Positions 32,525-58,629 of a stretch of DNA of 61,263 nt are shown piece by piece. Position numbers and translations under genes: made by a program. The notes beneath the pieces are model-generated. The model saw only the letters and a list, made by a program, of their open reading frames with translations. It was not told the origin of the DNA and did not search any database. Location: positions 1 through 61,263 of the IMG/VR virus record IMGVR_UViG_3300032722_000020; one strand, 5' to 3'. Every line of letters begins with the position of its first letter. Position 1 is the first letter of the stretch. This DNA is from a virus (lineage: Duplodnaviria > Caudoviricetes).

Positions 32525-33475
32525 TCAATTCGCGGGCTGGCGATACATGAGCCGCTTTCCGGCAATCATCGGCATAAACGCAACCATGCGCTCGCCGTCT
32601 GTGCTTTTGCGGGTATTCCAGCGAAATTAAAACTCGCTGGCGTATTTTGAAAGATGCTCCGCAGAAATGCAATGCCACGCGCCGAAAACACCCCTTTTGA
32701 GCAAGGAAAAGAAACTCTCGCAGGTATTCACATGACTAACCGTGCCGTCTGGATTATGCCGCGCGTATTCGTATTTAGAGTGATTCACGCGCTGGTGACG
32801 GTCTTGCCCCTTCAAAGCCATTTTGTAGGACGGATGTTCGTCTGTGTTCACTATCGCCGTCTTGCGGGCGGCTGCCGCCATAAACTCGCCGACGTTTTTT
32901 GCCGTCACGCTTGGAATAACCCGCGTGCGCGCTTCGCCATTGCGCTCGACAATCAGCGCAACAATGGTCTTACGCTCCGGCTTTTCAAAGTTGGGCATGA
33001 ATGTTTCATCGGCTTCGCAAGTGTTGTCCAGCAGCTTTGCCGTTTTCAAATCCGCTCCCATTGCGTGCCGTATGCGATGCGCTAGAAACCAAGCCGTGCG
33101 GTAGGTGGTTTTTAGCATCCGCCGCAATTGCATCGCGCTAATGGATTTTTTAGACGAACACAGAATGAAAATTGCCATCAAGATTTTAGAAAGCGGGACG
33201 TGAGAATCTTCAAACACTGTGCCAACGGTTGCGGTGAACGGCTTGCGGCACGCGCCGCAAAAATAAACACCTTTGCGAAGTGGTGAACGGCTACCCGCTT
33301 TGGATTTCAGCTTGGAAATGGTTTTGGCTTTGCCGTCATTCTGGCAATGTGGGCAAACCGGCTTGCCATCCGGCCAGCGCAGTTGCTCAAAAAGTTTCCG
33401 CGCCCGGTTTTCGTTGGAATACTTCTTTGCCAGTGAAACCAGATTCAGTTCTTCGTCGTTAAGCTTCGCTTTCAT
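32525..33475 (-). pseudogene. IS1595 (ISXO2-like DDE) transposase with premature TAA
   Basis: CPHC/CGAC Zn ribbon, EADET, NTDEH, NTCESFFSLLKRG. In-frame TAA at 32627-32629 is followed by the conserved FRWNTR...GKRLMY tail. Confidence 0.9.
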
Positions 33476-34239: not shown

Positions 34240-35148
34240 TCAGACTTGTGTTTTTAACTCCACTTCCGGCGCGATAATTTTGAACGCTTCCAAAATTCTT
34301 TGCTTAATATATCGGCGCAAAATTCCGCGAAGTTTTTTCCCTTCTTTCGTCGCGCTTTTTTGAGCGATGGGAATAAACCCAGCAAAACATTTTCGGTTTT
34401 CAAAATCTTCTTTCCAGCGTGAGCGAAAAAGCGGCCATGACGCATCAAACCATTGCTTGTGCGTCTGCTTGTTAAATGGCGGTAGATTTTTTGCCATCTC
34501 TTGTGATTCTCCACTCAATCTAAATTCTTCTTCCCATTCCGGTTTTGTCGGGATCGGTTTAGGTTTTGGGGGCTGATAGTTTGCTGGCCGTCCAAGCCGC
34601 TTGTTTAGCTCGCGCATTTCTTTTTGAAACTTCTTAAATTGTGCGCGACCGTTCTTAACATTTTCGGGTTGCCATTGTTCGCGCCAAAAATTCATTGTGC
34701 CTTTAAGCCAAAGCGCCACTTCTATTTCTGGCGCGTCGTAAGACCAGTTTCCTTTCAAATCCACACTTTTGACATCTGCTCCCAAGTGAAGTTTTTCCAT
34801 TAACTTTTCATTGCGGTTTTTAATCGCTTTTTGCGGTGAAATTAAAGCAGGCCAGTAAATTCCTTTTCGAGCAATGGACTCAAACATCTCTGGTTTTTCA
34901 TGGCAGAAATCATCAAACCAATGAACTATGGCGGATAAATAATTGAGAATAAGTTCAGCGGCTTCTTTGTTGCCTTTGTCGGCAGGCTTTGAAAGTTCAC
35001 CAAATGCGAGATGCGCAATCCTGCCAAGCGAACCCAATCTATCATCAATCAAATCGGTTGGTTCGTTTTTAATCTTTTCCGTCAAACCCATGAGAAAGGC
35101 GCAAACATCATGCTCGTAGATTTTCGGCCTGATTTCTTCCGCTGGCAT
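34240..35148 (-). CDS. Hypothetical passenger protein
   Basis: 302-aa lower-GC ORF inside the IS inverted repeats. Confidence 0.65.
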   Translation of the reverse strand: MPAEEIRPKIYEHDVCAFLMGLTEKIKNEPTDLIDDRLGSLGRIAHLAFGELSKPADKGNKEAAELILNYLSAIVHWFDDFCHEKPEMFESIARKGIYWPALISPQKAIKNRNEKLMEKLHLGADVKSVDLKGNWSYDAPEIEVALWLKGTMNFWREQWQPENVKNGRAQFKKFQKEMRELNKRLGRPANYQPPKPKPIPTKPEWEEEFRLSGESQEMAKNLPPFNKQTHKQWFDASWPLFRSRWKEDFENRKCFAGFIPIAQKSATKEGKKLRGILRRYIKQRILEAFKIIAPEVELKTQV

Positions 35149-35391
35149 AGGTTTTGACTTTGCGCTTTTGATGCCGGTAGAAAAGTGGCAAACTGCCATC
35201 AAGTAAAGCGATTTTATGCCCAAAGCCATTGATTTAAGATTGAAAGGCGTCAGCTTTGAAGAAGCCGTGCGGCGCATAGCTGCCGCGCCGCCCATGCCAA
35301 AGAAATCCAAGCGTAAAAAGGAAGTTAAAAAACCGCGTCTGAATTAGCCCACTTCTAACCGCATAAACATTCAGTTTTTCGCATTATCTGC

Positions 35392-38102: not shown

Positions 38103-38360
38103 ATGAACCTTCACGCCAATTCCATTGCCGCCTTTTCCGAGACTGCGAACGAGCGCACCAGCTTGGAAACGCGCATTCTTGAACTAATGTCCGATGGTAA
38201 TCCGCGCACTGACCGTCAGATAGCGCATGAGTTGGGACACCCGGAACCGCTACGGCCAAGAGTCACGACGCTGGTTGAAGAAGTCAAGCTACACGAAGTC
38301 GGTTCAACGAAATGCGAATAGACACACAAGCGCGTCAGATTAACCCGGCGTTTTATTTAA
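38103..38360 (+). pseudogene. Winged-helix protein with internal TAG at 38319-38321
   Basis: TDRQIAHELG..RPRVTTL..EVGSTKCE*THKRV; the frame continues to the TAA inside the first attC box. Confidence 0.55.
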
Positions 38361-38471
38361 CGTCCCTGCTGAGCCAAGCCGGAACGGGAACGCCCGAAAA
38401 ACAAAATGAAGCGACTACCGGCTTTGGCTCCGGCAGGTGGTTAGACCCAGCGAATAACGACAAACAACAAT

Positions 38472-38864
38472 ATGACACCGACACAAACAGTGGCTACGAA
38501 TGAGCGACAATCTGCTATCCTGCCAAACGGTAATAAAATAATAGACTCCGCAATCGCCAGACAGCTTGCCTTGGATTTAGAGGAATGTGGGAAAGCCCTA
38601 AACGCAATGTCGCTTCGGTGTGAAAGGCTTCTGGACGAACGCGCAGAAGCCTATGAGACAATAAACACCCTGCACAATCTTTGCCTGTCTGCTGAAAAGC
38701 GCGCTCTTAAAAAACGTGATGAAGAAATCGCGCAGATAAAAAACGAGCTGCAATACCTCGTCGAAGTCTGCGAAACCAACTTAGAAACAAAAGACTGGCC
38801 GCGATTCAAATATGCCAAACGCATCGCCGCTGGGTCTAACGACAAGCTGACACACGCCGAATGA
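38472..38864 (+). CDS. Cassette hypothetical coiled-coil protein
   Basis: 130 aa; reads through the AAC box into the next attC. Confidence 0.7.
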   Translation: MTPTQTVATNERQSAILPNGNKIIDSAIARQLALDLEECGKALNAMSLRCERLLDERAEAYETINTLHNLCLSAEKRALKKRDEEIAQIKNELQYLVEVCETNLETKDWPRFKYAKRIAAGSNDKLTHAE

Positions 38865-39742
38865 AAAACCATAAAACAACCAGCGACCGAAGCGAACAAC
38901 CGAGCGCGCCCAACGGCGTTGTGTCCAGCGATTTGTTAGACCCCATTTCAATAATCTCGCTAGGTGCGGGTGTCCAAAGCTCGACAATGGCACTGATGGC
39001 AGCGAGGGGCGAAATCGCGCCTATGCCCAAATATGCCATCTTTTCTGATGTCGGCGCAGAACCAAAGAATGTGTATGACTACCTCGACTATCTGGAAAAG
39101 CTGCTGCCGTTTCCTGTGCTGCGCGTGATGCACAAAGACGGGCTGACGAAAGCCATTGAAAAATCTCTAAAGTCTGGGTCTATCTCTGGAAGTCCGCCGT
39201 GGTTCAGTGCTGGCAAGGATGGAAAAGCCGTGCTGCTATCGCGTGCCTGCACGCATGACTTCAAAATACACCCGATACAACAAGCTATCCGGCGACTGAC
39301 GGGTGCTAAGCGTGGAAGCAAGAAAACTCACGCCGTGCTGTGGATAGGCATATCAACTGACGAAGCGCAGCGAATCAAAGACAGCCGCTATCCGCACTAC
39401 ATCCACCGCCATCCTCTAATCGAAAAGGGCATGAGCAGAAACAACTGTCTGGCATGGATGGAACGGAATGGCTACCAGCAACCGCCTAAATCTTCGTGCG
39501 TGTATTGCCCGTTTCACTCTAACCCGCACTGGCGGCAAATCAAAGACACAGACCCGGCTGGATGGGCGGAAGCTGTGCGCGTGGACAATCTCATCCGAGA
39601 CGGTGTGCGGCGGAATGGAAAGCCGCCAATGTATGCTCACCGCTCACTAAAACCACTAAACGAAATAGACCTGACAACTGACCTCGACCGTGGCCAAGAA
39701 CTACTCTGGGGAAACGAGTGTGAGGGGATGTGTGGGGTCTAA
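38861..39742 (+). CDS. PAPS reductase / PP-loop family protein (cassette)
   Basis: SLGAGVQSS, DVGAE, CTHDFKI, IGISTDE, PPKSSCVYCPF, ECEGMCGV. Confidence 0.85.
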   Translation: MKNHKTTSDRSEQPSAPNGVVSSDLLDPISIISLGAGVQSSTMALMAARGEIAPMPKYAIFSDVGAEPKNVYDYLDYLEKLLPFPVLRVMHKDGLTKAIEKSLKSGSISGSPPWFSAGKDGKAVLLSRACTHDFKIHPIQQAIRRLTGAKRGSKKTHAVLWIGISTDEAQRIKDSRYPHYIHRHPLIEKGMSRNNCLAWMERNGYQQPPKSSCVYCPFHSNPHWRQIKDTDPAGWAEAVRVDNLIRDGVRRNGKPPMYAHRSLKPLNEIDLTTDLDRGQELLWGNECEGMCGV

Positions 39743-39774
39743 CGTGGGCGCTGAGCCGCCCCGGAAAGAAAACC

Positions 39775-40362
39775 ATGAATGAACCAAAGACCGAAGCGAT
39801 AAACGACACGCGCCAACCGGGGTTGGCTCCAGCAACTTGTTATGCTTCCCTGCCGCCAATCCTGGACGCTTGTTGTGGAGGCCGGCAATTCTGGTTCGAC
39901 AAGGAAAACCCGAACGTGCTTTTTGCTGACTGCCGCGTGATGCCTGACAAGGTGGTCGGGAGCGGCAAGGATGCCCGCACGCGCCGCTGCCTGCCGGATC
40001 GTGTCCACGACTTCCGCGCAATGGAATATCCCGACGAGACTTTTCAAATGGTCGTGTTCGACCCGCCGCATCTATTCCTCGGCGAGAATAGCTTCATGGC
40101 TCAAAGCTACGGGCGGCTGGACCGCGAAACGTGGCGCGATGATTTGAGCCGTGGCTTCGCCGAGTGCTTCCGAGTCTTGAAGCCCGGCGGCGTGCTTATC
40201 TTCAAGTGGAATGAATGCGACGTGCCACTTGCGGAAATTCTAAAACTCACGCCGCACAAACCGCTGTTCGGTCATCCGAGCGGCAAAGCACAGAAAACGC
40301 ACTGGTGCGCGTTCTGGAAGCATAACGCTCCGGCTCACCGGCCGGCGCGAGAACAAGAATAA
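39775..40362 (+). CDS. SAM-dependent (DNA adenine) methyltransferase (cassette)
   Basis: ILDACCGGRQFW, VVFDPPHL, ECFRVLKPGGVLIFKW. Confidence 0.88.
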   Translation: MNEPKTEAINDTRQPGLAPATCYASLPPILDACCGGRQFWFDKENPNVLFADCRVMPDKVVGSGKDARTRRCLPDRVHDFRAMEYPDETFQMVVFDPPHLFLGENSFMAQSYGRLDRETWRDDLSRGFAECFRVLKPGGVLIFKWNECDVPLAEILKLTPHKPLFGHPSGKAQKTHWCAFWKHNAPAHRPAREQE

Positions 40363-40366
40363 CGCT

Positions 40367-40645
40367 ATGACTACTCAATCAACGTCCGAACAGCCAGCGC
40401 CCGCGCCGGTTCGCGTGCAGCCGGTGGTTAGAGCGCGATACCGTGTCTCTGACTGGATAAACACCAACACCATGCAGCCGGTCTTCGGCATCCAACACAA
40501 CAAGGAGCGGGGCAAGTGGGTGAACTGTGCGGTGGACGGCACGGCGCTGCTCTACACTAAACGCGAAACCGCCGAGAGACACTGCCGCTGGCTGAATGAC
40601 CCGAAAGGCACTGCGCCGGAATGGTCACAAGACTCAGCGCTCTAA
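40367..40645 (+). CDS. Cassette hypothetical protein
   Basis: Starts inside attC; its stop codon is the TAA of the terminal TCTAAC. Confidence 0.7.
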   Translation: MTTQSTSEQPAPAPVRVQPVVRARYRVSDWINTNTMQPVFGIQHNKERGKWVNCAVDGTALLYTKRETAERHCRWLNDPKGTAPEWSQDSAL

Positions 40646-40679
40646 CAGTTAATTCAATCAACAGAGTTGCTATTATCAC
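40640..40679 (-). other. Putative attI
   Basis: Minus strand ...TTGAATTAACTG|TTAGAGC directly 5' of intI, with no attC hairpin following. Confidence 0.65.
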
Positions 40680-41663
40680 ATGGGGCTTATCCAAAAACTG
40701 AACGATGCGATGATTGAGCAAAGCCTTGCGCGCTCAACTATGCAAGGCTACCGCTTTTGGAATCGCAAGTTCTATGGCTATGTGAAGAAACCGGCGAGCC
40801 AATGGCAAGGTGGCGATGTAAAGGCATTTTTACTGTGGTTGTATGCTGAAAATTATTCACCGGTTTCGCGCAAGCAGGCTTTGAATGCGCTGGCTTTTAC
40901 ATTCAAGCACGTTCTCATGGCAGACATGGGTAATTTGGAACTGCCGCCCATGCCGAAGGTGACTCAGACCAACCGGATTTTGCCATCGCCGGATGATTTG
41001 CAGCGCATTTTTGCCCTAATGAACGGTATGCCTAAAACAATGGCGCAACTGATGGCCGGATCTGGCCTGCGCGTGGCAGAGTGTTGCAAGCTGCGGGTGC
41101 AAGACGTGGACATTGAAGCCCGCACGATTCGCGTTTGGTTTGGAAAAAATGACAAGTGCCGGCGAACGATCATTCCTGATTCTCTGGTGCCGAAATTGCA
41201 GCGGCACCTGGCATTGCGAAAGGCACTGCATGACCGCGATCTAGCCGATGGACGCGGCTTGGTGGTTTTGCCGGGACGGCTGGCTAACAAATACCAGCAG
41301 GCTAACCAGGAATTTCGGCAGCAATGGTTTTTTCCGTCCACGAAGTTTCGCGGGCAGTATCGTTGGCACGCGGTTCCTGAATGTTTAGGAAAACCAATGC
41401 GCCGGGCTGTAAAGGCGGCGGGAATATTGAAGCACCTTACCCCGCATTGCCTGCGCCATTTCTTCATCACTTACAGTCAGCGCGTCGGAAATGACCTGAA
41501 AACAGTGATGGAATGGGCCGGTCATCAGAACCCAGAAACAACGATGATTTACACACACCCGGACGCGGCGAACGGGGTTAGTCCGTTGGATTATATGGTT
41601 GCCAGAACAATCATTACAACCCACCCGATGACACCAAGGCGGATTGAATTTCACCACGCATAA
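40680..41663 (+). CDS. intI: Integron integrase-type tyrosine recombinase
   Basis: Catalytic R-K-H-R-H-Y intact (GLRV, GKND, HCLRH, AGH, MIYTH). IntI-specific insertion HDRDLADGRGLVVLPGRLANKY..QWFFPS; N-terminal QALNAL. Confidence 0.92.
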   Translation: MGLIQKLNDAMIEQSLARSTMQGYRFWNRKFYGYVKKPASQWQGGDVKAFLLWLYAENYSPVSRKQALNALAFTFKHVLMADMGNLELPPMPKVTQTNRILPSPDDLQRIFALMNGMPKTMAQLMAGSGLRVAECCKLRVQDVDIEARTIRVWFGKNDKCRRTIIPDSLVPKLQRHLALRKALHDRDLADGRGLVVLPGRLANKYQQANQEFRQQWFFPSTKFRGQYRWHAVPECLGKPMRRAVKAAGILKHLTPHCLRHFFITYSQRVGNDLKTVMEWAGHQNPETTMIYTHPDAANGVSPLDYMVARTIITTHPMTPRRIEFHHA

Positions 41664-41697
41664 ATGTCCACAATCCAGACAGATTTATTTGCTACGC

Positions 41698-42066
41698 ATG
41701 AATCTTCCGATTCCATCACCAACCCTAGCTCGACTTAACCCGCACTTATTTAGCAGTGGTCAGTCCGTTGCTAGTTGCAGCGAACCAGTTACCCGCGAAA
41801 GTGACTTGCATGAATCCATCTTTGCCGAATGTCGGAAACGCGGTTGGATAGTGTTGCACGGTTCTATGTCAGAACGGACGCATCGCACGGCTGGCGAACC
41901 GGATTTTGTGATTCTGGCTAATGCGGGACGGTTGATGTTAGTGGAATGTAAGTCGCGCGGCGGTAAGTTATCGCCAACGCAAAGCGCGATGAAGGCGCAC
42001 GCGGAGAAGTTAGGCCATACGGTTCACGTTGTCAGGAGCATGGATGAATTTTTTAAGATTTTATGA
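41698..42066 (+). CDS. VRR-NUC domain nuclease
   Basis: GEPDF..VECK..GKLSPTQ..VVRS. Confidence 0.88.
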   Translation: MNLPIPSPTLARLNPHLFSSGQSVASCSEPVTRESDLHESIFAECRKRGWIVLHGSMSERTHRTAGEPDFVILANAGRLMLVECKSRGGKLSPTQSAMKAHAEKLGHTVHVVRSMDEFFKIL

Positions 42067-42138
42067 GTGAAAACAAAATGACGATGTTCATTTTTGAAAT
42101 TTACAGTAACTAAACCAACCGAAACCAAAAACAAAAAT

Positions 42139-42948
42139 ATGACAACTGCCATTGCAACTACATCAAAACCAAAAACCGAAACCAAGCCAAACGCGCTCGT
42201 AAGCCTCGCCGCTCGCCTGCAAGTTGATCCCGCCCGCCTGCAAACCATCTTGAAATCTACTGTGTTTGCCAAGGCTAATGATGATGAGTTCGCCGCGCTC
42301 GTTATTGTCTGCCAAGAGTATCGGCTCAATCCACTGCTCAAAGAGATTTACGCATTTCCCGCAAAGGGCGGCGGCATCTGCCCGATTGTCAGCGTTGACG
42401 GTTGGAACAAAATGCTCATCACGCACCCGGAATTTGATGGCATTGAATATGTTCGTGGGGATGATTCCGAAGGCAATCTTCAATCCTGCACCGCGACGGT
42501 CTTTATGAAGAACCGTTCGCATCCGATGGTCATTACCGAATACCTGTCCGAGTGCAAGCGGAATACCGAGCCGTGGAATCAAATGCCGTGGCGGATGCTT
42601 CGTAACCGCACCACCTGTCAGGCCGCGCGCATGGCCTTTGGTTTCTCTGGGGTCTATAATGAAGATGAAGCCAAGACCATCACCGTCGAGTCAACGGTGA
42701 TTCCCAACGAACCGCCGCCGAAGATTATTGCTGCGCCGGCTACGACCACGGCACAAGCCGAACTGGAAGCACTTATCACCGGAGAAGGTTACACCTTTGA
42801 CCATCTGCAAAAGTTCGGGATTGAAACTGGAAACATTGCGAATGCTGATAGCATCGGCGGATTCGATGAAATCAGCACGGACGACGCCAAGCGGTTGCTC
42901 AAAGCTAAGACTGGTTTGTTGAACGGTTTGAAGGCGATTAAGGGATAA
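42139..42948 (+). CDS. bet: Red-beta/RecT-family single-strand annealing protein
   Basis: YRLNPLLKEIYAFP..PIVSVDGW..PW...MLR..QAARMAFGFSGVYNEDE. Confidence 0.92.
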   Translation: MTTAIATTSKPKTETKPNALVSLAARLQVDPARLQTILKSTVFAKANDDEFAALVIVCQEYRLNPLLKEIYAFPAKGGGICPIVSVDGWNKMLITHPEFDGIEYVRGDDSEGNLQSCTATVFMKNRSHPMVITEYLSECKRNTEPWNQMPWRMLRNRTTCQAARMAFGFSGVYNEDEAKTITVESTVIPNEPPPKIIAAPATTTAQAELEALITGEGYTFDHLQKFGIETGNIANADSIGGFDEISTDDAKRLLKAKTGLLNGLKAIKG

Positions 42949-45091: not shown

Positions 45092-45319
45092 ATGATCATC
45101 ACCAACAAACCAAACCTTCATTGCCCGAACTGCTCCAACAAGTTGCGATGGTGGCACGCTACCAAGATGCAGGACGACGAGAGCATTGTTGTTGTGCATC
45201 GTGATTGCAGACTGACAGCCGCACGGTGCAAGTATGTTCGCAACGTGGTGCTTGCGATAGTGCTAGGGCTGGCTAGTGCTGGCGCGGCGGTGATGTTCGG
45301 ACATTTGGCGAGTAAATAA
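45092..45319 (+). CDS. Small Zn-finger membrane protein
   Basis: CPNC..HRDC plus C-terminal TM segment. Confidence 0.6.
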   Translation: MIITNKPNLHCPNCSNKLRWWHATKMQDDESIVVVHRDCRLTAARCKYVRNVVLAIVLGLASAGAAVMFGHLASK

Positions 45320-45330
45320 AAAATAAAAAT

Positions 45331-45507
45331 ATGACTGAACCAATCAAACTCCGGCGTCCGGCGAAATATCTGCACACCGGCAAACATGACTATGATGACG
45401 GCTTCCGAGTCGGAAGCAACTGCGCCAAACGCCGCACTATCCGTGCCTTCAAGCGCGGGCAACGTCGTGAAAGTCTCAAATACATGACTCAAGACGAAGT
45501 GGCCTAA
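45331..45507 (+). CDS. Small basic protein ending in an attC box
   Basis: 58 aa; stop codon within AGTGGCCTAAA. Confidence 0.55.
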   Translation: MTEPIKLRRPAKYLHTGKHDYDDGFRVGSNCAKRRTIRAFKRGQRRESLKYMTQDEVA

Positions 45508-45540
45508 AGCTCCGCATTAGCGACCGCCGACCAAAACGCT

Positions 45541-45774
45541 ATGATTGCAACTGAGACGCCCAACGGCGGTTCACTCGATGCGGTTGTTAGGCATACACCG
45601 TGGACACAAGATGAAGATGATATGCTGCGCTACTGGTATGGGTGCGCGAATGGCGCAATGACCCCATACCGGCACATGGCTGAATATCTGAACAAACACT
45701 TTCACGGCGGCAAACCAATCCGAAAAGTCGGTGCAATAGCTCGCCGCGACGGAAAAATAAACTACGGCAAATGA
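45541..45774 (+). CDS. Myb/SANT-like HTH small protein (cassette)
   Basis: PWTQDEDDMLR..MAEYLN..R; starts inside attC. Confidence 0.65.
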   Translation: MIATETPNGGSLDAVVRHTPWTQDEDDMLRYWYGCANGAMTPYRHMAEYLNKHFHGGKPIRKVGAIARRDGKINYGK

Positions 45775-46049
45775 AATACATAATCGAAACTGGAAATGAC
45801 GGAGGCGCGGCCTCGGTAGTGGGATGGACTCACGACTTCGGAAGTGCCTGCAATGAAGTGGCGCGGATAGTCGGGATTGACTGCTATGTGAAAATCCAGC
45901 CAATCAATCGCGGCAAAAACGGCGCGATATGGAACTTCGTCCATGACGGAAAAACAAAGTGGCTGCGCGTGCTTAAAATGCCCGCTGCCGAAACCTACGG
46001 CGCGATGGATGTATGTTCGCCCGTTCGAGACGCATCGCTGTATGCCTAA
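45771..46049 (+). CDS. Cassette hypothetical protein
   Basis: Second gene of the same cassette; stop codon within GCCTAAC. Confidence 0.65.
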   Translation: MKYIIETGNDGGAASVVGWTHDFGSACNEVARIVGIDCYVKIQPINRGKNGAIWNFVHDGKTKWLRVLKMPAAETYGAMDVCSPVRDASLYA

Positions 46050-46176
46050 CGTAGAAAGCTGAGCCACCCGCGACCTATGACATCCGCCAACCAGAAACCT
46101 TCTCGGTCAACTGACAGCGCCAACGCGGGTTGGCTCCGGCGACTTTTTAGGCCACTGGTATAACTGAAACAAAAAT

Positions 46177-46539
46177 ATGGGATACATATCTGAAACAATC
46201 GGCAATCTGGAACACGAGCAACGGACGGCAAACAAGCTGGCCGACGCGATAGCCCTGCTGCGCGAACTCGAATGGTCGGGATGCGTGAACACCGAAATAC
46301 TCGCGGTGAACACCTGCCCGTGCTGCTACAACTGGAAACCAACAAGCGGTGACGATGATTTCTGGAAAGGCCGCGAACTGCGGAAAGGACACACGCCGGA
46401 CTGCAAGCTTGCCGATTTGCTGAAAGCATCTAACGCGGACATCAGGCGCGGCGACGTGAACCGCGACAGCGGAACAGCAAGCGCCAACGGCGGTTGGCTC
46501 CGGCGACTGGTTAGGCATAGCGATATAAAATCTAAATAA
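46177..46539 (+). CDS. Cassette hypothetical protein (Cys/His motif)
   Basis: LEWSG..CPCC..GHTPDC; reads through the next attC. Confidence 0.65.
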   Translation: MGYISETIGNLEHEQRTANKLADAIALLRELEWSGCVNTEILAVNTCPCCYNWKPTSGDDDFWKGRELRKGHTPDCKLADLLKASNADIRRGDVNRDSGTASANGGWLRRLVRHSDIKSK

Positions 46540-46540
46540 A

Positions 46541-46777
46541 ATGAAAACCGAAACCAAACGAACCGACAAGGAACGCGAGCAACAAGCTGCGACTCCCGAC
46601 AAACCGCGCTCGGCATATCTTGCGCGTAAATTCTTTCCGCACCTCGGCGAATATCACGGACAAGCCTTGGTCGAACAACTAATCCGCGCCGCCGCTATGC
46701 CTAACGAAAAAGCTGACCTACCGCCGACCGGGGCGCGTCAGCCGCGTAGCGGAACTGAAGGCGGTAACGGAGGTTAG
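46541..46777 (+). CDS. Cassette hypothetical protein
   Basis: 78 aa; ends inside attC. Confidence 0.55.
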   Translation: MKTETKRTDKEREQQAATPDKPRSAYLARKFFPHLGEYHGQALVEQLIRAAAMPNEKADLPPTGARQPRSGTEGGNGG

Positions 46778-46820
46778 GTCCGGCGCTTTTTTAGCTGAAC
46801 GTCAAAAAAAACAGAAAATT

Positions 46821-47219
46821 ATGGGAACAAACTACTATCTGAAAACGAATATCTGCCAGCACTGCAATCGCGCTGGAGAAGAAAAACACATCGGCAAATC
46901 TTCCGGCGGCTGGCACTTCGCGCTGCACGTCGAGCCGGAAAATGGCATCGCAACTCTGGATGACTGGAAAGTGCTGTTCGCGCAACCAGACTCCAAAATC
47001 TTCGATGAATACGGCAAAGAAATCGCTGTGGATGAAATGCTGAAAATCATCACCGAACGGTCATGGTGGCAGCGAAAGAACGACTGGAAGAAAGAACAAT
47101 ACGAACAAAACCACGCCCAACCCGGCATCAATGGACTCATCCGCAACAAAATAGAACCCGACCACTGTGTCTCGCACGGCGAAGGAACGTGGGACTGCAT
47201 CGTGGGCGAGTTCAGATAA
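46821..47219 (+). CDS. Phage-type hypothetical protein (cassette)
   Basis: MGTNYY..CQHC..HIGKSSGGW..IFDEYG. Confidence 0.8.
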   Translation: MGTNYYLKTNICQHCNRAGEEKHIGKSSGGWHFALHVEPENGIATLDDWKVLFAQPDSKIFDEYGKEIAVDEMLKIITERSWWQRKNDWKKEQYEQNHAQPGINGLIRNKIEPDHCVSHGEGTWDCIVGEFR

Positions 47220-47254
47220 AGCTCCTGCTGACCTACCGCGCACGTTAGATGCGA

Positions 47255-47503
47255 ATGTCCAAACTCAAAAAATATATGGCAAAAAATAAAACAAGCAACA
47301 GACACGAAAATCAGCAACATCCCAAATGGGAATATATGATTAACGACTTGGCGTTCCTGAACACTGAAAAGGAAACCATCCTGAACCTTCTTGGCCAAGA
47401 TGGATGGGAAGCCGTCGGATTTACCGGCAATGGCTCGGTGCTTCTAAAAAGGAAAGCATCTAAACGTAGAAAGCTGATCCACCGCCGACTAAAATCTAAC
47501 TAA
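47255..47503 (+). CDS. DUF4177-like protein (cassette)
   Basis: KWEY...LNLLGQDGWEAVG...LLKR. Confidence 0.7.
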   Translation: MSKLKKYMAKNKTSNRHENQQHPKWEYMINDLAFLNTEKETILNLLGQDGWEAVGFTGNGSVLLKRKASKRRKLIHRRLKSN

Positions 47504-47512
47504 AATAAAACT

Positions 47513-48070
47513 ATGATTCACTGCCCACGTTGCAACTGTCCTTTTGAAGCGTCAGTAACAGAATTTTCTTGCTGCCCAAATTGTTCACTTGAAGTTGAAC
47601 CAATCGAACCAAAACCTATGACCACCACCCAACAAAGCTCACCAACCAAAGAACAAATCGCCAAGCAATGCACTTGTGGTTTGAAGCCACATCCGCAAGA
47701 TGGATGTCCTGCTATTTCTCCACAAATCCCGACGCCGAGGACGGATGAAATCCATCGAATTAACACCAAGATGAACGTCCATGATGAATATGGCAATCTG
47801 TTAGACCACGCCCGCACTCTCGAACGCGAACTCATCACCACCAAACAACTCGCCGAACGCTACGAGCAAGAGCGTAACGAGTATCAAGAACAACTCCTAG
47901 CTGTCCGGCGTGAGTTAGAGGAAGCGAGGAAGGGCAAGGAACGATACGAGTATGTTCGGCGTCTGAATCCAACAAGTTTCGCTTCACTGTTCACTCAAAA
48001 CATCCGAACCGGCAAACACTTTGACGACATCGTTGACGATGCTATTAACCAAGCGAAAGGCAAACAATGA
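47513..48070 (+). CDS. Hypothetical phage protein
   Basis: CPRC/CPNC; TPRTD..ARTLEREL motif. Confidence 0.65.
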   Translation: MIHCPRCNCPFEASVTEFSCCPNCSLEVEPIEPKPMTTTQQSSPTKEQIAKQCTCGLKPHPQDGCPAISPQIPTPRTDEIHRINTKMNVHDEYGNLLDHARTLERELITTKQLAERYEQERNEYQEQLLAVRRELEEARKGKERYEYVRRLNPTSFASLFTQNIRTGKHFDDIVDDAINQAKGKQ

Positions 48071-52682: not shown

Positions 52683-53045
52683 ATGAAAGAAATAATAGAA
52701 ATCTTGAACGAACTCGCGGGAGAAATCCACGAGCTAAACCATAAGTGGTGGCACGATAAAAACGGCCAACCGCTGCAACGCAACAAGGGCGAACTGCTCT
52801 GCCTCATGCACTCGGAAATCTCCGAGGCGATGGAAGGCGAGCGGAAAGACCTGATGGATGACAAGCTGCCGCATCGCAAAATGGCAGAGGTGGAACTGGC
52901 CGACGCGCTCATCCGAATCTTAGACTACGCCGCAGGATTCAACTACGACATCGGCGGAGCAGTCTTTGAAAAACTGCAATACAACGCCACGCGGCAAGAC
53001 CACACGCACGAAGCGCGCGAACAAGCCAACGGCAAGAAATGGTAA
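52683..53045 (+). CDS. MazG-like NTP pyrophosphohydrolase
   Basis: LCLMHSEISEAMEGERK..EVELADALIRILD..EKLQYN..R. Confidence 0.88.
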   Translation: MKEIIEILNELAGEIHELNHKWWHDKNGQPLQRNKGELLCLMHSEISEAMEGERKDLMDDKLPHRKMAEVELADALIRILDYAAGFNYDIGGAVFEKLQYNATRQDHTHEAREQANGKKW

Positions 53046-53269
53046 CTAACGAAAAAAGATGAGCCACCGGCAACCCACGACTATGCAAACCAATAACTCT
53101 TGCGAATTACTGAAAGCCCAGACAAATCGCTGATCTAAAAGCTGAAAATGCCGAACTGCGCCGACACCTAGCCGACGCGGTAAAATCGGTGCTAGAAATC
53201 CGCGACTTGCTCGACCCTGACGGAAATCTGTGCGTCAAAGACGCCGCCGTAAAACTGAAAGCTAAAATC

Positions 53270-53614
53270 ATGGAAACAACACTAGAAAAACCAAGTGCCG
53301 CCGCAAATGCCAGCGACAAGGCGGATTCGCCTGCGATGCCTTGTTCGGAGAAAAAACCAGTGATAATCCGTGGCCGTGCAATATGCCACGGGGCTGACCT
53401 TCGGTGGTCTAGCCTGCCAATCATAAACCTTCCGCCCAACACAATCAAAGTTCGTCGGCGCATCAGAAATGATCGCTTCGCATCGGTGTTCGTAAAAACA
53501 AAAACCGAAGTCCAACACTGGAGGCTCTGTCCAGTAGGAGATAAATTCAATGGTGTAACCGAACTCTATCTCGACCTACTGCAAGGGGTGAACGCCTTTT
53601 CTCCGAACAGTTGA
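53270..53614 (+). CDS. Cassette hypothetical protein
   Basis: Start lies in an attC remnant. Confidence 0.5.
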   Translation: METTLEKPSAAANASDKADSPAMPCSEKKPVIIRGRAICHGADLRWSSLPIINLPPNTIKVRRRIRNDRFASVFVKTKTEVQHWRLCPVGDKFNGVTELYLDLLQGVNAFSPNS

Positions 53615-53641
53615 ATATACCAGGCCACTTTGTATAACCTA

Positions 53642-55822
53642 GTGACTCCCGAAACTAAATCCATCGCCGAGCAAAATGCGATTGCCAAAGTCACCTCCGC
53701 CGCGTGGCGCGGCGTCGGCAAATCGTTTCGCGGTGAGATTTATGACTACGCCCGCACGTTCACGTTGGGCAGCGGTTATCTGGGCGACTGGCAGCTAACC
53801 AACCTGTGCCGCCTCTGCCGCGCCAAAGGTAACATCCGAACGTGCCGCCATTTTGAGATAGATACCGCGCGCCATTTAATCGGCCCGTTCAAAGCCATCC
53901 TCGATCCCAATGTGCGGATTGTGATGTTGCTTAAAGCTGCACAAACCGCCGGCTCGCTCGTTTGGGATTTGACAGTCCATTATCTGCTCGTCCATTCGCC
54001 TTATATGCGGGTTAAGGCGCTGATGGATTGTGAAGAAAAGGCGCGAATTTATTGCACGCAGCGATTGATGGAAACTTTGCGAAAGAATCCCGACATCTCT
54101 CCCCTGCTGCCGACCGGAGCGGACAGGTTCGGCGTGACCGATACGGAGATGCGTTTGCTTAACGGTAAAACTTTATTCGTCGGCGGACTTAACGAAACAA
54201 ATGCGTCATCGCTACCGGCGGACGTGATGATTCTGGACGAGGGTTGGTTGCACCAATCGGATGGGCTAATGGGAAAAGCTGTCAACCGCGTCAAACAAAG
54301 CCAGAAACGAGGAAAACTTATTATCGTGGGACAGGCTGGAAAAGTGAAGGAGGATCAGGATTTAATTTGGGAGGGGCTTCATGTTCGTGTTCCTTTGACG
54401 TTTTCATGTCCTGCCTGCGGTGGCCGACAGGAATTTAACATCACCAAGCAACGGCCAAATGATTTTGCGCCGCTTCCAATCAAGGGGATCGGCGAATGGA
54501 CGATTCCTGCCGATCCTCCAAAGCCAGAAACTTTTTGGGGGATGAAGGTGCCGGAACGTTTTTCAGAACTCGACACGCCGGAAAAAATCAAGTCTGCCGC
54601 CGCCAAGACAACGATTGAATGCTACCATTGCGGATCAGAACTTCCCGACACCCGCAAAATCCGCGAAGCCATCAATGCTACATTTGATCAGGAATATCGC
54701 CAGCAGTTGCCGAATGGGATTTTTTACACGCCGAAAAATTTTAGCGTTGGATTCTGGCAGCCCGACCCGGCCTCGATGTTCGTTCCGTGGCGAGAAACCA
54801 TGCAGGCATACATCGTGGCGGTCAAAGCACATAAAGAATCTGGGAACATCCAAAAACTGATTGATTTTTACTTGTCGAACTGGGCAACACCTTGGGATGG
54901 AAAATCGCTGTCGGTTTCCAACCGGACGATAACCGCCGGAACTTACGACCCGTTGAAGTATCTGGAAATTTTTGGCAAGGATGAATCCGGCGCGAGCCTG
55001 TTTCATTCCGTGAACATGGCAGTGGACTGCCAAGAGGACGCCGACCACAAGGCCGCAACCGAGAAATCCATCACTGGCTGGTTTTGGTATATCGTGCGTG
55101 CGTATGACCGATTTGGAAACAGTCGTCAACTGGCGCGCGGTTATTGCAAATCATGGGCGGCATGGCGCTCGGTTCAGGCATTTTGGGGAGTTCCGAATGA
55201 CCGGGTAATGATTGACGTAGTGCAATGGAGCGAACAGGTGATGAATAAGGCGGTGGAGTTCCGGCAGATGGTGAAGCGTTCGCGGCCACATCCGATTTTC
55301 AAGACGATGGAAGATTCGGTGACTTGGAAACTTCTGGCCGCAAGTCCCGGCAAGCAGAATTTCAAGGGACATCGGGACGGCCAAATCAGGCCGTGGTCGC
55401 CAGAGGCGGCAGTGTATGGTAGTATGATTGACGAGTCCGGCAAAGTGCGGCGCATCCCGCTGGCGCGCATTTTATTCAACAAGACGCCCATCATGTTGCA
55501 GATAGATTCGCTTTACAGCGGAGCGCCAGGGATGCCGAAGTTTGAATTTTTATCGCGTGACCAGCTTAAAATTCCGGCGGCTGATGGAAAAACGCTTGTG
55601 CCGGACACGCTGACGCTTTCAATGGAAGTGGACGGGCGCAACGGCAGGCAGACGATGTTGGCTTACGAAAACCAGATGAGCGCGCAGATTTACAACAAAG
55701 AGACGAACAAGTATGACGAGTTGCGACCGGACGATCACTGGTTTTGGTGCGAGCAGGCGTTACTTGTGCGTGCGGGGATGGACGGTTTGTTGGGGCAATC
55801 AGCGGTGTTTTCGGCGGAATGA
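53642..55822 (+). CDS. Terminase large subunit (GpA family)
   Basis: KAAQTAGS (deviant Walker A), MILDE (Walker B), CPAC/CYHC, AVDCQ nuclease motif, DHWFWCE. Confidence 0.9.
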   Translation: MTPETKSIAEQNAIAKVTSAAWRGVGKSFRGEIYDYARTFTLGSGYLGDWQLTNLCRLCRAKGNIRTCRHFEIDTARHLIGPFKAILDPNVRIVMLLKAAQTAGSLVWDLTVHYLLVHSPYMRVKALMDCEEKARIYCTQRLMETLRKNPDISPLLPTGADRFGVTDTEMRLLNGKTLFVGGLNETNASSLPADVMILDEGWLHQSDGLMGKAVNRVKQSQKRGKLIIVGQAGKVKEDQDLIWEGLHVRVPLTFSCPACGGRQEFNITKQRPNDFAPLPIKGIGEWTIPADPPKPETFWGMKVPERFSELDTPEKIKSAAAKTTIECYHCGSELPDTRKIREAINATFDQEYRQQLPNGIFYTPKNFSVGFWQPDPASMFVPWRETMQAYIVAVKAHKESGNIQKLIDFYLSNWATPWDGKSLSVSNRTITAGTYDPLKYLEIFGKDESGASLFHSVNMAVDCQEDADHKAATEKSITGWFWYIVRAYDRFGNSRQLARGYCKSWAAWRSVQAFWGVPNDRVMIDVVQWSEQVMNKAVEFRQMVKRSRPHPIFKTMEDSVTWKLLAASPGKQNFKGHRDGQIRPWSPEAAVYGSMIDESGKVRRIPLARILFNKTPIMLQIDSLYSGAPGMPKFEFLSRDQLKIPAADGKTLVPDTLTLSMEVDGRNGRQTMLAYENQMSAQIYNKETNKYDELRPDDHWFWCEQALLVRAGMDGLLGQSAVFSAE

Positions 55823-56694: not shown

Positions 56695-58629
56695 ATGAAA
56701 GTTTTATCCCCATCCACATGGTTTCAGAAAAGCGTTGCGGTTGCTCCGCCACCGCAGTCTGAGTCCCCGTTTCGCCAAGACCTGTCGCCGGACGAAATCG
56801 CGCGGGCAAACGCGCAGATTCGCACGTTTGGAAAGATGAAGGAGCAGGTTGCCGGTCTGATGGAATCCGCCAGCCGTTTGCAGCGCAGTTATGACGCTGG
56901 GGTGACGACGGCTTTCAATGCGGATTTCAAAGGGACTTACGGAACGGCTAACACGGAAATTTTCATGGACTTTTACAAGGTGTGGGCGCGAGCGCGCACC
57001 TTGGCGAAGGACACGCCGCAGGGCAAGGCGATTTTACGGACGCACCGCAACAATATCGTCGGGCATGACCCGTTCAAGCTCACAATGAAGGTTGGTTCAA
57101 CGATTGAGAAGCCACATCCCAAATCCGGCCAAATGGTAAAAGTTTTTGAGGCCGAAAATGATGTCAACCAGATAATCGAATCAGAGTGGAAACAGCAGGG
57201 TTTGCCGGAAAACTTTACCGTGCGCGGGACGGTTTCCTCATTGGAGGCGTTCAACCAGATGGTGAACGAGGCTAAGACCATCGGCAGCGTTTTAATCCGT
57301 CTGTGGGATGATTTTCCGAACAACGAAAGCCGGTTTGCGATTGACCTTTTGGAGTCCGACCGCTTGCAGCCGAATTACATGGCCACTTCGCAGACGGGCG
57401 ACAAGTTTGGCGCTGGCAACCCGATTCGCGGCAGCATCGAGTATCATCCGAAATGGAATTATCCGCTGGCCTACTGGATTTTGACGCGGCATCCTGGCGA
57501 GGGGTATGTCCAAAACAACTATGTCGGCGACGGCGACAAGAAATGGGTGCGCGAGCAGGTTCCGGCGAAGGACATCATCCATTTCAACAACCTGCGGGAT
57601 CGCGCGGAGCAGGAATTTGGCTTCACGGAAATGGACGCCTGCATCCAAGCAATTTGGCGGCTGTTCCAATACCAGAAGGCTTTAACCTATGCCGCTATTT
57701 CAAGCTGCATGAAAGTTTTCTGGATCAAGAAAAACTATCCTACCGGGATGAGCTTCACGCCGGACGAGTTCGGGGCGATGGTGGAAAAGTTTGCGGACGG
57801 AACAGGTTTGCCAAATGCGCTGGCTGGCGGCGACAGCGTGACGCGGCAACAAGGCATCCAGCAACGACGCAGCACCGAGACTCCGGGCGCAACTCTGGAA
57901 CTGGATTACGGTTTGGAACTGATGCAGACCGACCCGCGCTTTCCCATCGAGGCCGCGCATGAATTTCGGATGGATAACGACAAGGAGATTGCGGCGGCGG
58001 CGGCGGTGTCGTATTCCGATTTGACCGGGGATTTTCAGTCGCTCGGCTACATCGCAGCGCAGATGTCGCAACGTCCGTCCCGCGATGAGGCGATGGTGTT
58101 TCAGGAACACATGATAATGGTGGTGGTATCGCGCATCTTCAAACGCTGGCTTCGCGCTGCGTGCATGAATGGCGTGCTGGACGGGCTGGCGTCGAGACAG
58201 AAAGAGATTTTGCGGGCAGCACATTTCCACGGCAAGCGGTTCCCGTTCACGGACGAACTACGCGAAGTGCAGGCGCTCGTTTTGAAGCTGGACGCCAAGC
58301 TGATTTCTCCGCAACGCGCGCAGGACATGATGGCCGACGGCGACGATATTGAAAACGTGATTGCCGAATGGTCGCAATGGAATGAGCGGTGCGAGGCTTA
58401 CGGCATCACGCTGATGGACGCGCCGACAAGCGTTACGGAAAAAGAAACGCTGGCGGAAACACCGGATGCCCCAACCACGGATGATGGTGGAGAACCTCCG
58501 GCTGCCACACAGAAGCCGTCCAAGAAAAAAGGCAGCGTGACAGCCAAGCAGCAGACGGCGCGCAGCAGCCATCAGCGCAACGGCCACGGCGCGGCACTGG
58601 TGCGGCAACTGCTGGCGGAAAGAATTTAA
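56695..58629 (+). CDS. Portal protein, lambda family
   Basis: RSYDAG, ARARTL, NNIVG, LESDRL, PLAYWI, VPAKDIIH, VSYSDLTGDF. Confidence 0.93.
   Translation: MKVLSPSTWFQKSVAVAPPPQSESPFRQDLSPDEIARANAQIRTFGKMKEQVAGLMESASRLQRSYDAGVTTAFNADFKGTYGTANTEIFMDFYKVWARARTLAKDTPQGKAILRTHRNNIVGHDPFKLTMKVGSTIEKPHPKSGQMVKVFEAENDVNQIIESEWKQQGLPENFTVRGTVSSLEAFNQMVNEAKTIGSVLIRLWDDFPNNESRFAIDLLESDRLQPNYMATSQTGDKFGAGNPIRGSIEYHPKWNYPLAYWILTRHPGEGYVQNNYVGDGDKKWVREQVPAKDIIHFNNLRDRAEQEFGFTEMDACIQAIWRLFQYQKALTYAAISSCMKVFWIKKNYPTGMSFTPDEFGAMVEKFADGTGLPNALAGGDSVTRQQGIQQRRSTETPGATLELDYGLELMQTDPRFPIEAAHEFRMDNDKEIAAAAAVSYSDLTGDFQSLGYIAAQMSQRPSRDEAMVFQEHMIMVVVSRIFKRWLRAACMNGVLDGLASRQKEILRAAHFHGKRFPFTDELREVQALVLKLDAKLISPQRAQDMMADGDDIENVIAEWSQWNERCEAYGITLMDAPTSVTEKETLAETPDAPTTDDGGEPPAATQKPSKKKGSVTAKQQTARSSHQRNGHGAALVRQLLAERI

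Follow-up and report, generated by a model that had tools for sequence, protein, structure and literature searches.

A lake-phage integron and a neighbouring cluster of attC sites that are most likely disabled relics

Introduction

Published phage integrons are few and are mostly described as host-derived fragments (PMC9892861). Qi, Rajabal, Ghaly, Tetu and Gillings (2023) surveyed 10,705 NCBI phage genomes and report three complete integrons, described as pieces of host or plasmid integrons (PMC9892861). The locus presented here resembles their cases in having intI, attI and attC-bounded cassettes in a phage, in having a further cluster of attC sites that would lack an integrase of its own, and in carrying DNA methyltransferase cassettes, including the Methyltransf_11 type (PMC9892861). 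Unlike those integrons, it lies among early genes, recurs in related contigs, has cassettes with inverted ORFs whose starts lie inside attC, and is accompanied by a degenerate second cluster; the words "degenerate", "IMG" and "Verrucomicrobia" are absent from the main text of that paper (PMC9892861).

The sedentary chromosomal integrons of Verrucomicrobiota (L059, L111, L117 and L071) carry the same 99-nt attC family as the phage, with AAC and GTT boxes and a bulged T on the GTT arm in both. In these chromosomal arrays, 23 of 24 spacers have their longest ORF on the attC top strand, opposite to the phage cassette ORFs, which lie on the bottom strand. Their triplets are essentially invariant (AAC in all 57 sites aligned for it and GTT in 53 of 54, 110/111 in total), whereas four of the distal phage sites carry an altered triplet. 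A cassette becomes immobile once the attC site at its boundary is truncated or mutated, and cassettes of class 1 integrons have been fixed by loss of or damage to attC, for example as fused cassettes or at the qacEdelta1 end. Those cases concern plasmid and transposon integrons under antibiotic selection, whereas the phage cluster lies in an early region and comprises seven relics of several kinds.

Frumerie et al. (2010) mutated attCaadA7 and attI1 at the same G1/C3′ pair that is changed in the phage sites, and G1 to T was among the changes tested (PMC2811028). Their mutants were changed on both strands with pairing kept, whereas the phage sites are changed on one side, leaving a mismatch; the integrase and the sites used there also differ from those of the phage (PMC2811028).

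The phage integron beside intI

We analysed the whole of one IMG/VR record (IMGVR_UViG_3300032722_000020, 61,263 nt; hereafter the window). It belongs to an uncultured lake-water phage that has its own complete integron, with intI, an attI junction and four cassettes (A–D), inside the early gene block. The slash marks the junction point in the sequences below.

40680–41663, + strand: intI, an integron-type tyrosine recombinase of 327 aa (P0001); TIGR02249, Pfam and structure match
40640–40679, no strand assigned: attI-like junction CTCTAA/C AGTTAATTCAATCAAC, at the right end of the 320-nt cassette D
38355–38446, + strand: attC A (ATTTAAC and GTTAGAC), intact; fold, right-arm profile E = 4e-9
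38834–38941, + strand: attC B (GTCTAAC and GTTAGAC), intact; fold
39737–39845, + strand: attC C (GTCTAAC and GTTATGC), boxes intact; host-only model E = 2.8e-7, columns 2–98
40320–40433, + strand: attC D (GCATAAC and GTTAGAG); fold
40326–40645, + strand: cassette D, 320 nt, with an ORF at 40367–40645; lacking in the X4 and X7 contigs

The integron integrase model TIGR02249 matches the intI product with 223.7 bits over model positions 1–313 of 315 (curated cut-off 265), against 80–87 bits for the XerC/D models and 80–119 bits for the next unrelated Xer models, and Pfam assigns Phage_integrase and Phage_int_SAM_4. VchIntIA (2a3v) is the best solved structure (E = 2.4e-45), and residues 11–303 align to it with the IntI-specific segment LPGRLANKYQQANQEFRQQWFFPS included, which places intI among the IntI-clade tyrosine recombinases with this extra segment. 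There are 362 homologues, several of which are called integron integrase by their source, and those with 80–91% identity all come from contigs shorter than 3 kb; relatives among viral contigs were found by an alignment-based search and none by a single-protein search. Another candidate integrase, the ORF at 34240–35310, was ruled out, having no family in Pfam, NCBIfam or PHROGs.

The junction point between 40645 and 40646 lies 35 nt upstream of the intI ATG, and the sequence is 78% conserved in a related phage locus (L003), which reads GCCTAA/CAGGTAATTCAACCAAC at its attI junction. Cassettes A–D span 38361–40645, leftward from this attI, with boundaries at AA/C (G/TT). Reading the boxes of A–D confirms that all four sites next to intI keep AAC and GTT, and in B and C together the triplet positions are changed in 0/9 cases versus 30/121 at other conserved positions. 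Either strand of attC A gives an attC hairpin (z = −3.5 and −3.1). In the fold of attC B, the R box has 7 bp, the spacer is 4 × 4 and the 3′ arm bulges by a single base at two places; that of attC D has a closed R box with bulges on the 3′ arm, the true left box being GCATAAC at 40320–40326. A PAPS-reductase-like ORF (38861–39742) has its ATG inside attC B and is matched by phrog_424 from residue 30, just past attC, while a DNA methyltransferase ORF (39775–40362) has an in-frame ATG inside attC C and is matched by phrog_954 from residue 42.

Natural populations differ in whether they contain cassette D. In the contigs of X4 and X7, it is missing exactly between the AA/C points at 40325/6 and 40645/6, and the flanking match across the joint extends over 74 nt in X4 and 30 nt in X7. 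Two observations suggest recent activity of the array beside intI, namely the polymorphism of cassette D and the conservation of the attI junction in L003; the natural presence and absence of this cassette would point to recombination by the phage IntI. Contigs of part of the population contain an internally deleted intI.

A second cluster of the same attC family

Seven further sites (S1–S7) lie past the 3′ end of intI.

45502–45592, + strand: S1, R′ GCCTAAA (C3′ to A), R″ GTTAGGC; fold, orthologues
46044–46152, + strand: S2, R′ GCCTAAC, R″ TTTAGGC (G1 to T); host-only model E = 2e-16, columns 1–99
46428–46516, + strand: S3, half site with both boxes kept and the family left arm lost; model columns 34–99 only
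46699–46796, + strand: S4, R′ GCCTAAC, R″ TTTAGCT (G1 to T and two more changes); host-only model E = 6e-14
47214–47250, + strand: S5, left arm AGATAAA (C3′ to A) joined directly to GTTAGAT; left-arm profile E = 6e-4
47456–47491, + strand: S6, left arm only, with one extra A (ATCTAAAC); host half-model E = 8e-7
53044–53081, + strand: S7, left-arm-only relic with AAC intact; host half-model E = 3.3e-5

The distal and proximal sites are genuine attC sites of a family that is abundant in the chromosomal integrons of Verrucomicrobiota. A right-arm profile made from the window gave eight window matches, all on the + strand (E = 1.4e-13 to 3.2e-7). The host-only profile, built from 27 Verrucomicrobial chromosomal sites, matched S2 (2e-16), S3 (5e-18), S4 (6e-14) and C (3e-7) on the + strand and, more weakly, B (5e-4), S6 (1e-3) and S1 (0.015). 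Imperfect hairpins of the attC type, whose boxes read RYYYAAC and GTTRRRY and which combine an unpaired spacer with extrahelical bases on one arm, were obtained for A, B, D, S1 and S2; for C, S3 and S4, the minimum-energy fold was not the canonical one, and an Rfam gathering scan of the whole window returned 0 matches. The right arm often encodes NGG.L..LVRH-like peptides, yet the frames differ; since the GTT box lies in three frames (B, C and S1/S3/D), the conserved unit is the DNA element and not a peptide motif. Among viral relatives, 10 of 11 sites retain both triplets (boxes read by eye).

In the + strand folds of A, B, D and S2, the GTT arm carries the extra bases; in the − strand folds of A, B, S1 and S2, the AAC arm does. 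On the attC bottom strand, extrahelical bases lie opposite AAC (Nivina 2016, PMC5027507). The + strand of the window is the attC bottom strand, that is, the recombining strand, and the strand assumption of the sequence-only reading has to be corrected in this sense. With this strand assignment, the array points leftward, and its cassette ORFs have the reverse orientation to those of bacterial integrons. A phage cassette thus consists of an attC site followed by an ORF, the start of which is often inside its own attC. All phage cassette ORFs are on the bottom strand and co-directional with intI, as they are in L012, L009 and other viral loci, and none follows the arrangement of ORFs on the attC top strand pointing outward from attI. 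A coding score is reached by 12 of 13 + strand ORFs of the window and by none of 11 − strand ORFs. The polarity of A–D is divergent from intI; that of S1–S7, past the 3′ end of the gene, is not.

Lesions of the distal sites

The sequence-only reading described the distal sites as the far part of an array altered at its normally invariant triplets. The altered motifs are all present where it placed them (CCTAAA at 45503–45508, TTTAGG at 46146–46151, TTTAGC at 46790–46795, GATAAA at 47215–47220 and CTAAAC at 47460–47465), and two sites are indeed deleted or halved, S5 with its left arm fused to GTTAGAT and S6 as a left arm only. The sites form a separate cluster, set off by about 3.8 kb from the 3′ end of intI, rather than the remote part of the attI array: S1–S6 lie within 2 kb, all on the + strand, starting 3,838 nt past the intI stop codon. 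Such a cluster would count as a CALIN (attC sites lacking an integrase) or be joined to intI according to the distance threshold of the finder. S3, which had been taken as intact, has lost its left arm and matches the model only from column 34; since S3 is damaged in this way, all six distal sites are affected. Each of S1–S6 carries a box lesion or lacks an arm, and none is predicted to be recombination-competent.

S1 still folds (z = −2.1 and −1.7). Its orthologue at L021:8570–8653 has 93% identity and reads GAGAAC, and the L016 orthologue reads GACTAAC. Since both have C at this position, the A in S1 is derived, as are two stem-breaking changes. A 7-nt deletion as the origin of AAA was ruled out, as both orthologues show AAC followed directly by GCTCCGCAT. 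In S2, 8 of 78 other conserved columns are changed, but four of these form the compensated stem pair CCCGCG/CGCGGG, and the arms are otherwise nearly pristine. S4 also has a compensated stem (GACCTA/TAGGTC), and its R box is unpaired in the fold. The right part of S3 (46451–46516) is nearly identical to the host consensus, and in contigs of other organisms a canonical left arm precedes 46451; folding gave no hairpin for S3 (z = +0.6 and −0.18), and the ORF at 46177–46539 runs through it. The middle and right arm of S5 are deleted. S6 shows 89% identity to the left arm of S2, and the ORF at 47249–47503 runs through it. S7, which the sequence-only reading does not list, matches the full model with E = 5e-3 over columns 3–38, and a weak right-arm-like match at 53302–53345 (E = 0.05–0.75) was not accepted as its missing arm.

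Taken by type, C3′ is changed to A in S1 and S5, G1 to T in S2 and S4, and an arm is lost in four of the seven relics (S3, S5, S6 and S7), with at least one disabling lesion in each. Each of the four point changes replaces G:C by T:A and extends an A run or a T run, which fits ordinary AT-biased or slippage-type mutation. As for T runs serving as intrinsic terminators, none was predicted on the + strand at S2 or S4; over all predictions, 21 terminators were found versus 17.7 expected.

Contigs from the population bear on error in a single assembly as a source of these variants. S1 is matched with 0 differences by contigs of other lake studies (X3 45169–45581 and X7 45472–45844), as are both S2 boxes by X4 (46039–46506) and S6 by X3 (47454–47850). 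The variants of S1, S2 and S6 are therefore not errors of one assembly; S4 and S5 are covered by X1 alone among the pieces listed, and X1 is possibly the source run of the window itself. These data are assembled contigs and not raw reads, so that rare excision products would be hidden in them. The distal joints 45592 to 46044 and 46062 to 47463 were rejected as excision products, the flanking match being merely 20–25 nt, repeat to repeat. Joints such as 46068 to 46451 carry extra letters and high depth and are thus attributed to other family members rather than excision; the summed contig depth is 410–1905 over 46308–46674 versus about 1–17 in most other bins.

Cause of the loss of activity

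In assays with IntI1, G1/C3′ is the single pair that needs to match the partner site for docking of the exchanged strand, and recombination falls 10^3 to 10^4-fold when one partner is altered at this pair, an effect size that belongs to IntI1 with attCaadA7, another integrase than the phage IntI (PMC2811028). In the phage sites, the C3′ to A change adjoins the cleavage point and the G1 to T change lies in the opposite box, and both may spoil strand docking. By analogy with IntI1, we infer that recombination of the altered sites with normal ones would reach at most about a thousandth of the usual level.

The distal sites are most likely disabled relics. We consider that relaxed constraint and survivorship account for S1–S7, with a probability of roughly 0.6, and that triplet-directed selection is unnecessary to explain them. 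Since pairs of still-active sites would be excised, only disabled sites would remain. The surviving parts of the relics differ from the host consensus at 3.5–18% of conserved columns, and the deletion of an arm in four of the seven at so small a divergence points to a stronger filter than neutral decay would be. Selection and plain survivorship are both plausible as this filter.

The sequence-only reading had favoured selection to fix useful cassettes, which would thereby become phage early genes. Worked out for these sites, positive selection against excision would have picked a G1/C3′ change, the most effective single point change, repeatedly; we regard this as unlikely. All four substitutions do fall on the 11 G1/C3′ positions among 33 triplet positions (hypergeometric 0.008, calculated post hoc and ignoring AT bias), the pair at which a change in one partner costs 10^3 to 10^4-fold in the IntI1 assays (PMC2811028). 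All seven relics are disabled despite low overall divergence, the S2 arms show almost no other uncompensated change, and with intI intact and the neighbouring array looking recently active, an excision pressure is plausible. However, the density of triplet changes equals the background, with 2/21 triplet versus 28/262 other conserved positions changed in the distal sites alignable to the host model. The claimed excess of triplet damage is thus not seen, and a match to background decay rates is the very outcome that the sequence-only reading had set against its own proposal. Its idea of triplet hits as a lock keeps the four point changes at G1/C3′ in its favour, but four of the seven relics would be disabled by arm loss. 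Deletions disabled most of the relics, S1 and S4 carry further damage, and the point changes are of the commonest mutational type, within A or T runs. The usefulness of the distal ORFs is also questionable, as 7 of 8 are without a PHROG or Pfam family, and where intI is internally deleted the excision pressure would be gone. The lesions should nevertheless cripple recombination, and to this extent the proposal of cassette fixation stands, while selection aimed at the triplets is not shown.

It is rather improbable that the relics arrived truncated, as pieces of attC arrays of the host or of other phages introduced through recombination, whether illegitimate or homologous, or inserted off-target by an integrase, so that the half sites would be ends of captured fragments and not products of decay in place. 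Such an origin would agree with S3, a right part only, and S6, a left part only, which bracket 46451–47491 like the ends of one captured piece. S2, S3, S4, S6 and S7 are also nearer to the host consensus than the proximal sites (3.5–18% versus 23–28% mismatch), the attC family is very abundant in the same lakes, as the depth over 46308–46674 indicates, and off-target cassette insertion has been published (10.1101/2022.09.11.507474). On the other hand, the ORFs between the relics are opposite in strand to host cassette ORFs and have phage-like codons, and truncated arrival leaves the point changes in the full-length S1, S2 and S4 unexplained.

That S1/S5 (A at C3′, G at G1) and S2/S4 (C at C3′, T at G1) form a private set, mismatched with every normal attC and attI and recombining only mutually, which would shield the phage cassettes from capture by, or loss to, the huge normal-site array of the host and let the phage's own integrase reshuffle the distal cassettes among themselves, is very hard to credit: only G1/C3′ complementarity between partners is required (PMC2811028), the two classes of change are exactly reciprocal (A with T, C with G) and S1 and S2 still fold as hairpins, but S5 has no hairpin, the S4 R box is unpaired, S1 has extra stem breaks, a mismatch in the folded cleavage site lowered IntI1 recombination from 2.2e-3 to 6e-6 and TTT sites were still 20-fold down when matched (PMC2811028), and neither of the joints that it predicts, 45507 to 46050 and 45507 to 46705, is among the joints listed (15 of 16).

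Genes between the relics

If the distal sites are disabled as relaxed constraint and survivorship would have it, the genes they enclose act as a fixed part of the phage, and the small genes there are probably fixed phage genes now. The direction proposed earlier, from cassette to phage early gene, does not follow. Homologues of the 132-aa distal ORF occur in four other viral contigs without attC, and these contigs leave the direction "cassette becomes phage gene" not shown; the search for attC in these four loci gave no match (best E = 0.32), and neither did that in one viral locus with the 120-aa ORF.

Host and recurrence in related viruses

Because of the attC family carried, the phage host is probably a Verrucomicrobiota bacterium, and the lake-phage integron would thus use the attC family of its likely hosts. 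The distal cluster seems to be a natural record of cassettes losing mobility, including changes at the pair identified as essential in the laboratory, and it offers native sites for testing how a cassette turns into a fixed gene and how phage and host exchange cassettes. The phage integron recurs in the related viral contigs L003, L009, L012 and L016, and L012 shares the layout of attC C, with the start of the DNA methyltransferase ORF inside the site.

Integrase and recombining strand

The sole tyrosine recombinase detected in the window, intI at 40680-41663 (+), matches the NCBIfam integron integrase model TIGR02249 over its full length with 223.7 bits, against a curated cut-off of 265; the XerC and XerD models give it 80-87. 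Among solved structures it is closest to 2a3v, the integron integrase of Vibrio cholerae (E 2.4e-45), and the alignment spans the segment specific to integron integrases. The ORF at 34240-35310, considered as the integrase, was rejected, being without a family match in Pfam, NCBIfam and PHROGs.

According to Nivina et al. 2016 (PMC5027507), extrahelical bases lie opposite AAC on the attC bottom strand. Folds of the + strand place single-base bulges in the GTT arm of sites A, B, D and S2, and those of the - strand in the AAC arm of A, B, S1 and S2. As an independent check, the longest ORF lies on the opposite strand in 23 of 24 spacers of chromosomal arrays in like orientation, and its start lies close to the next AAC box, within a few bases, as is usual for cassettes. 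From bulge placement and chromosomal ORF strand, the + strand of the window is the attC bottom strand; cleavage is thus at AA|C in the left box, and the array polarity is leftward. The four attC sites left of intI (A-D, 38355-40433) retain AAC and GTT, as the sequence-only reading had stated. An attI-like junction, CTCTAA|C, lies at 40640-40646, 35 nt before the intI start, and is with its flank 78% conserved in the related phage locus L003, whose terminase and portal are 38% and 45% identical to those of the window. Given the leftward polarity, A-D and this junction form a canonical divergent integron.

Contigs from two runs of other studies, X4 (74 nt flanking match) and X7 (30 nt), join 40321 to 40642. 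Because TAAC is shared, the join represents the exact loss of 320 nt, from AA|C at 40325|40326 to AA|C at 40645|40646, which is cassette D. These boundaries define GCATAAC (40320-40326) as the left box of D, with which D folds as an attC. They fall at left boxes, as the bottom-strand assignment predicts, and not where the earlier strand orientation would put them.

In contigs of runs X1 and X4, 727 nt within intI (40796-41522) are absent and the frame is shifted, with CCGG microhomology at both edges of the gap; the X4 contig lacks cassette D too. Judged from these contigs, a dead integrase seems to be carried by part of the natural population. In another viral contig, L020 (9900-10400), the integrase match is limited to residues 172-304, and directly beside the truncation is an attC-like site that lacks a GTT box.

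Inverted cassettes

Among the ORFs of the two clusters and their surroundings, a codon-usage score trained on the phage's long genes rated 12 of 13 on the + strand as coding and all 11 on the - strand as non-coding. Since the + strand is coding, the cassette order on the bottom strand is attC, then ORF. Several ORFs start within their own attC, and their PHROG matches start just beyond it.

ORFs starting within their own attC (start position)
38861, PAPS-reductase-like ORF
39775, DNA methyltransferase
40367, cassette D ORF
45541, distal cluster ORF

Viral locus L012 (integrase 50% identical) carries the methyltransferase cassette of the window too, there adjoining intI and likewise with its ATG inside the attC. 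By a crude ORF count, most related viral loci have the genes upstream of intI pointing the same way as intI itself. The nearest published work is Qi et al. 2023 (PMC9892861); in the papers on integrons, attC and CALINs that we consulted, the main text of that one among them, neither ORF-inverted phage cassettes nor natural variants of the first GTT base or last AAC base (G1/C3') are described. Among the matches listed for this literature, no paper mentioning IMG VR was found.

Damaged sites beyond intI

The distal sites S1-S6 start 3,838 nt downstream of the intI stop codon, across intI from attI, and are not the outer end of the attI array. The five altered motifs reported there (CCTAAA 45503-45508, TTTAGG 46146, TTTAGC 46790, GATAAA 47215-47220 and CTAAAC 47460) are all present, and S5 and S6 are truncated as well, in agreement with the claim of two shortened sites. 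A further relic, S7, directly follows the stop codon that ends ORF 52683-53045 and precedes the terminase genes, so that attC remnants reach well past the cluster as first described.

Distal attC relics (all +; R', left box; R'', right box)
S1, R' GCCTAAA; AAC in orthologues L021 (93% identical over 85 nt) and L016, hence A derived; two stem-breaking changes likewise derived
S2, R'' TTTAGGC; apart from this, changes in 8 of 78 conserved columns, four of which form a compensated stem
S3, model columns 34-99 only; normal left arm at that point in other organisms' contigs
S4, R'' TTTAGCT; 14 of 79 other conserved columns also changed
S5, left arm with AAA directly joined to GTTAGAT
S6, left arm alone, one extra A
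S7, 53044-53081, left arm alone, AAC intact

All seven relics are damaged, by arm loss in four and a G1/C3' change in four (both in S5). ORFs 46177-46539 and 47249-47503 run through damaged attCs (46434-46539 and 47456-47503), which encode their last 15-35 residues; the L181 homologue of the former matches only residues 17-84. Among assembled contigs, which would hide rare events, the distal cluster showed no clean AA|C-bounded joint.

Frumerie et al. (PMC2811028) report that for IntI1 the first nucleotide pair, G1/C3', alone must match between partners. A change in one partner cuts recombination 10^3 to 10^4-fold, a mismatch within a folded site lowers it from 2.2e-3 to 6e-6, and TTT sites recombine 20-fold less even when the partner matches (PMC2811028). 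Going by these IntI1 data, S1, S2 and S4 should be almost inactive when paired with normal sites; for half sites, folding is impossible.

Origin of the triplet changes

The triplets hardly vary among functional relatives: AAC is retained by all 57 aligned chromosomal sites and GTT by 53 of 54, and of 11 sites from viral relatives 10 retain both triplets. In proximal sites B and C, 0 of 9 triplet positions are changed versus 30 of 121 other conserved columns. In distal sites alignable to the host model, the corresponding values are 2/21 and 28/262; the triplet constraint has thus been lost, and triplet hits are not in excess, an outcome that the sequence-only reading had itself named as refuting. 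All four substitutions fall at G1/C3', which comprises 11 of the 33 triplet positions (probability 0.008, post hoc). No other pair of the triplet is G:C. The four substitutions are each G:C to T:A and each extends a run of A or T (TTGTT to TTTTT; TAAC to TAAA), which is precisely what ordinary mutation, AT-biased or of the slippage type, would favour.

We consider relaxed constraint with survivorship the simplest account of the distal cluster: an active integrase would excise working site pairs, and non-recombining sites would persist outside the attI array. That selection instead disabled the sites to keep putatively useful cassette genes is favoured by the damage to every relic at just 3.5-18% divergence, and seems rather unlikely given the missing triplet excess. 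Four other viral contigs carry homologues of the 132-aa distal ORF but no attC sites, so that cassettes may have become phage genes or phage genes cassettes. It is still less probable that the half sites are captured attC fragments, and a reciprocal private code among the altered distal sites is scarcely credible.

Host and genome context

A right-arm profile built from the window finds eight copies in it, all (+) (E 1.4e-13 to 3.2e-7). The 16-base right-arm motif forms multi-copy arrays in genome assemblies whose titles name Verrucomicrobiae or Verrucomicrobia subdivision 3, with 14 exact matches in locus L059 and 3-4 in each of L111, L071 and L117. From 27 Verrucomicrobial chromosomal sites a tightly conserved 99-nt consensus was obtained, and a profile of these sites only matches S2, S3, S4, C, B, S6, S1 and the relic at 53046-53081, all (+). 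From this common attC family we infer that the host is probably a member of the Verrucomicrobiota. In four runs from lakes or fresh water, contig depths in the bin with the S3 right arm (46308-46674) add up to 410-1905, most other bins being at about 1-17; the family is thus very abundant in the phage's waters and belongs to the most highly repeated sequences of those metagenomes.

Six chromosomal sites of the family (L085, L109, L136, L164 and L172 loci) end at model column 92, directly before GTT. Those of L085, L109 and L136 continue with identical foreign letters (CCATGAGAAGG...), also found in a loose end of run X1 at window position 46145; a mobile element with a fixed target point in this attC family may be responsible.

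The IMG/VR virus record is linear, with 61,263 bases and an estimated completeness of 83%, and between roughly 36 and 61 kb nearly all genes lie on the + strand.

Phage genes
3-1232, capsid
41644-42066, VRR-NUC nuclease
42094-42948, RecT
53630-55822, large terminase
56695-58629, lambda-type portal

An IS1595-family transposase (DDE_Tnp_IS1595 and zinc ribbon; 32627-33475, -) adjoins an AT-richer stretch at 33-36 kb. A 963-aa ORF (9906-12797, -) bears all three DNA polymerase III beta-clamp domains at its start and adjoins a 1142-aa polyvalent protein (6372-9800, -) with LPD29, methyltransferase-like and DUF4942 parts.
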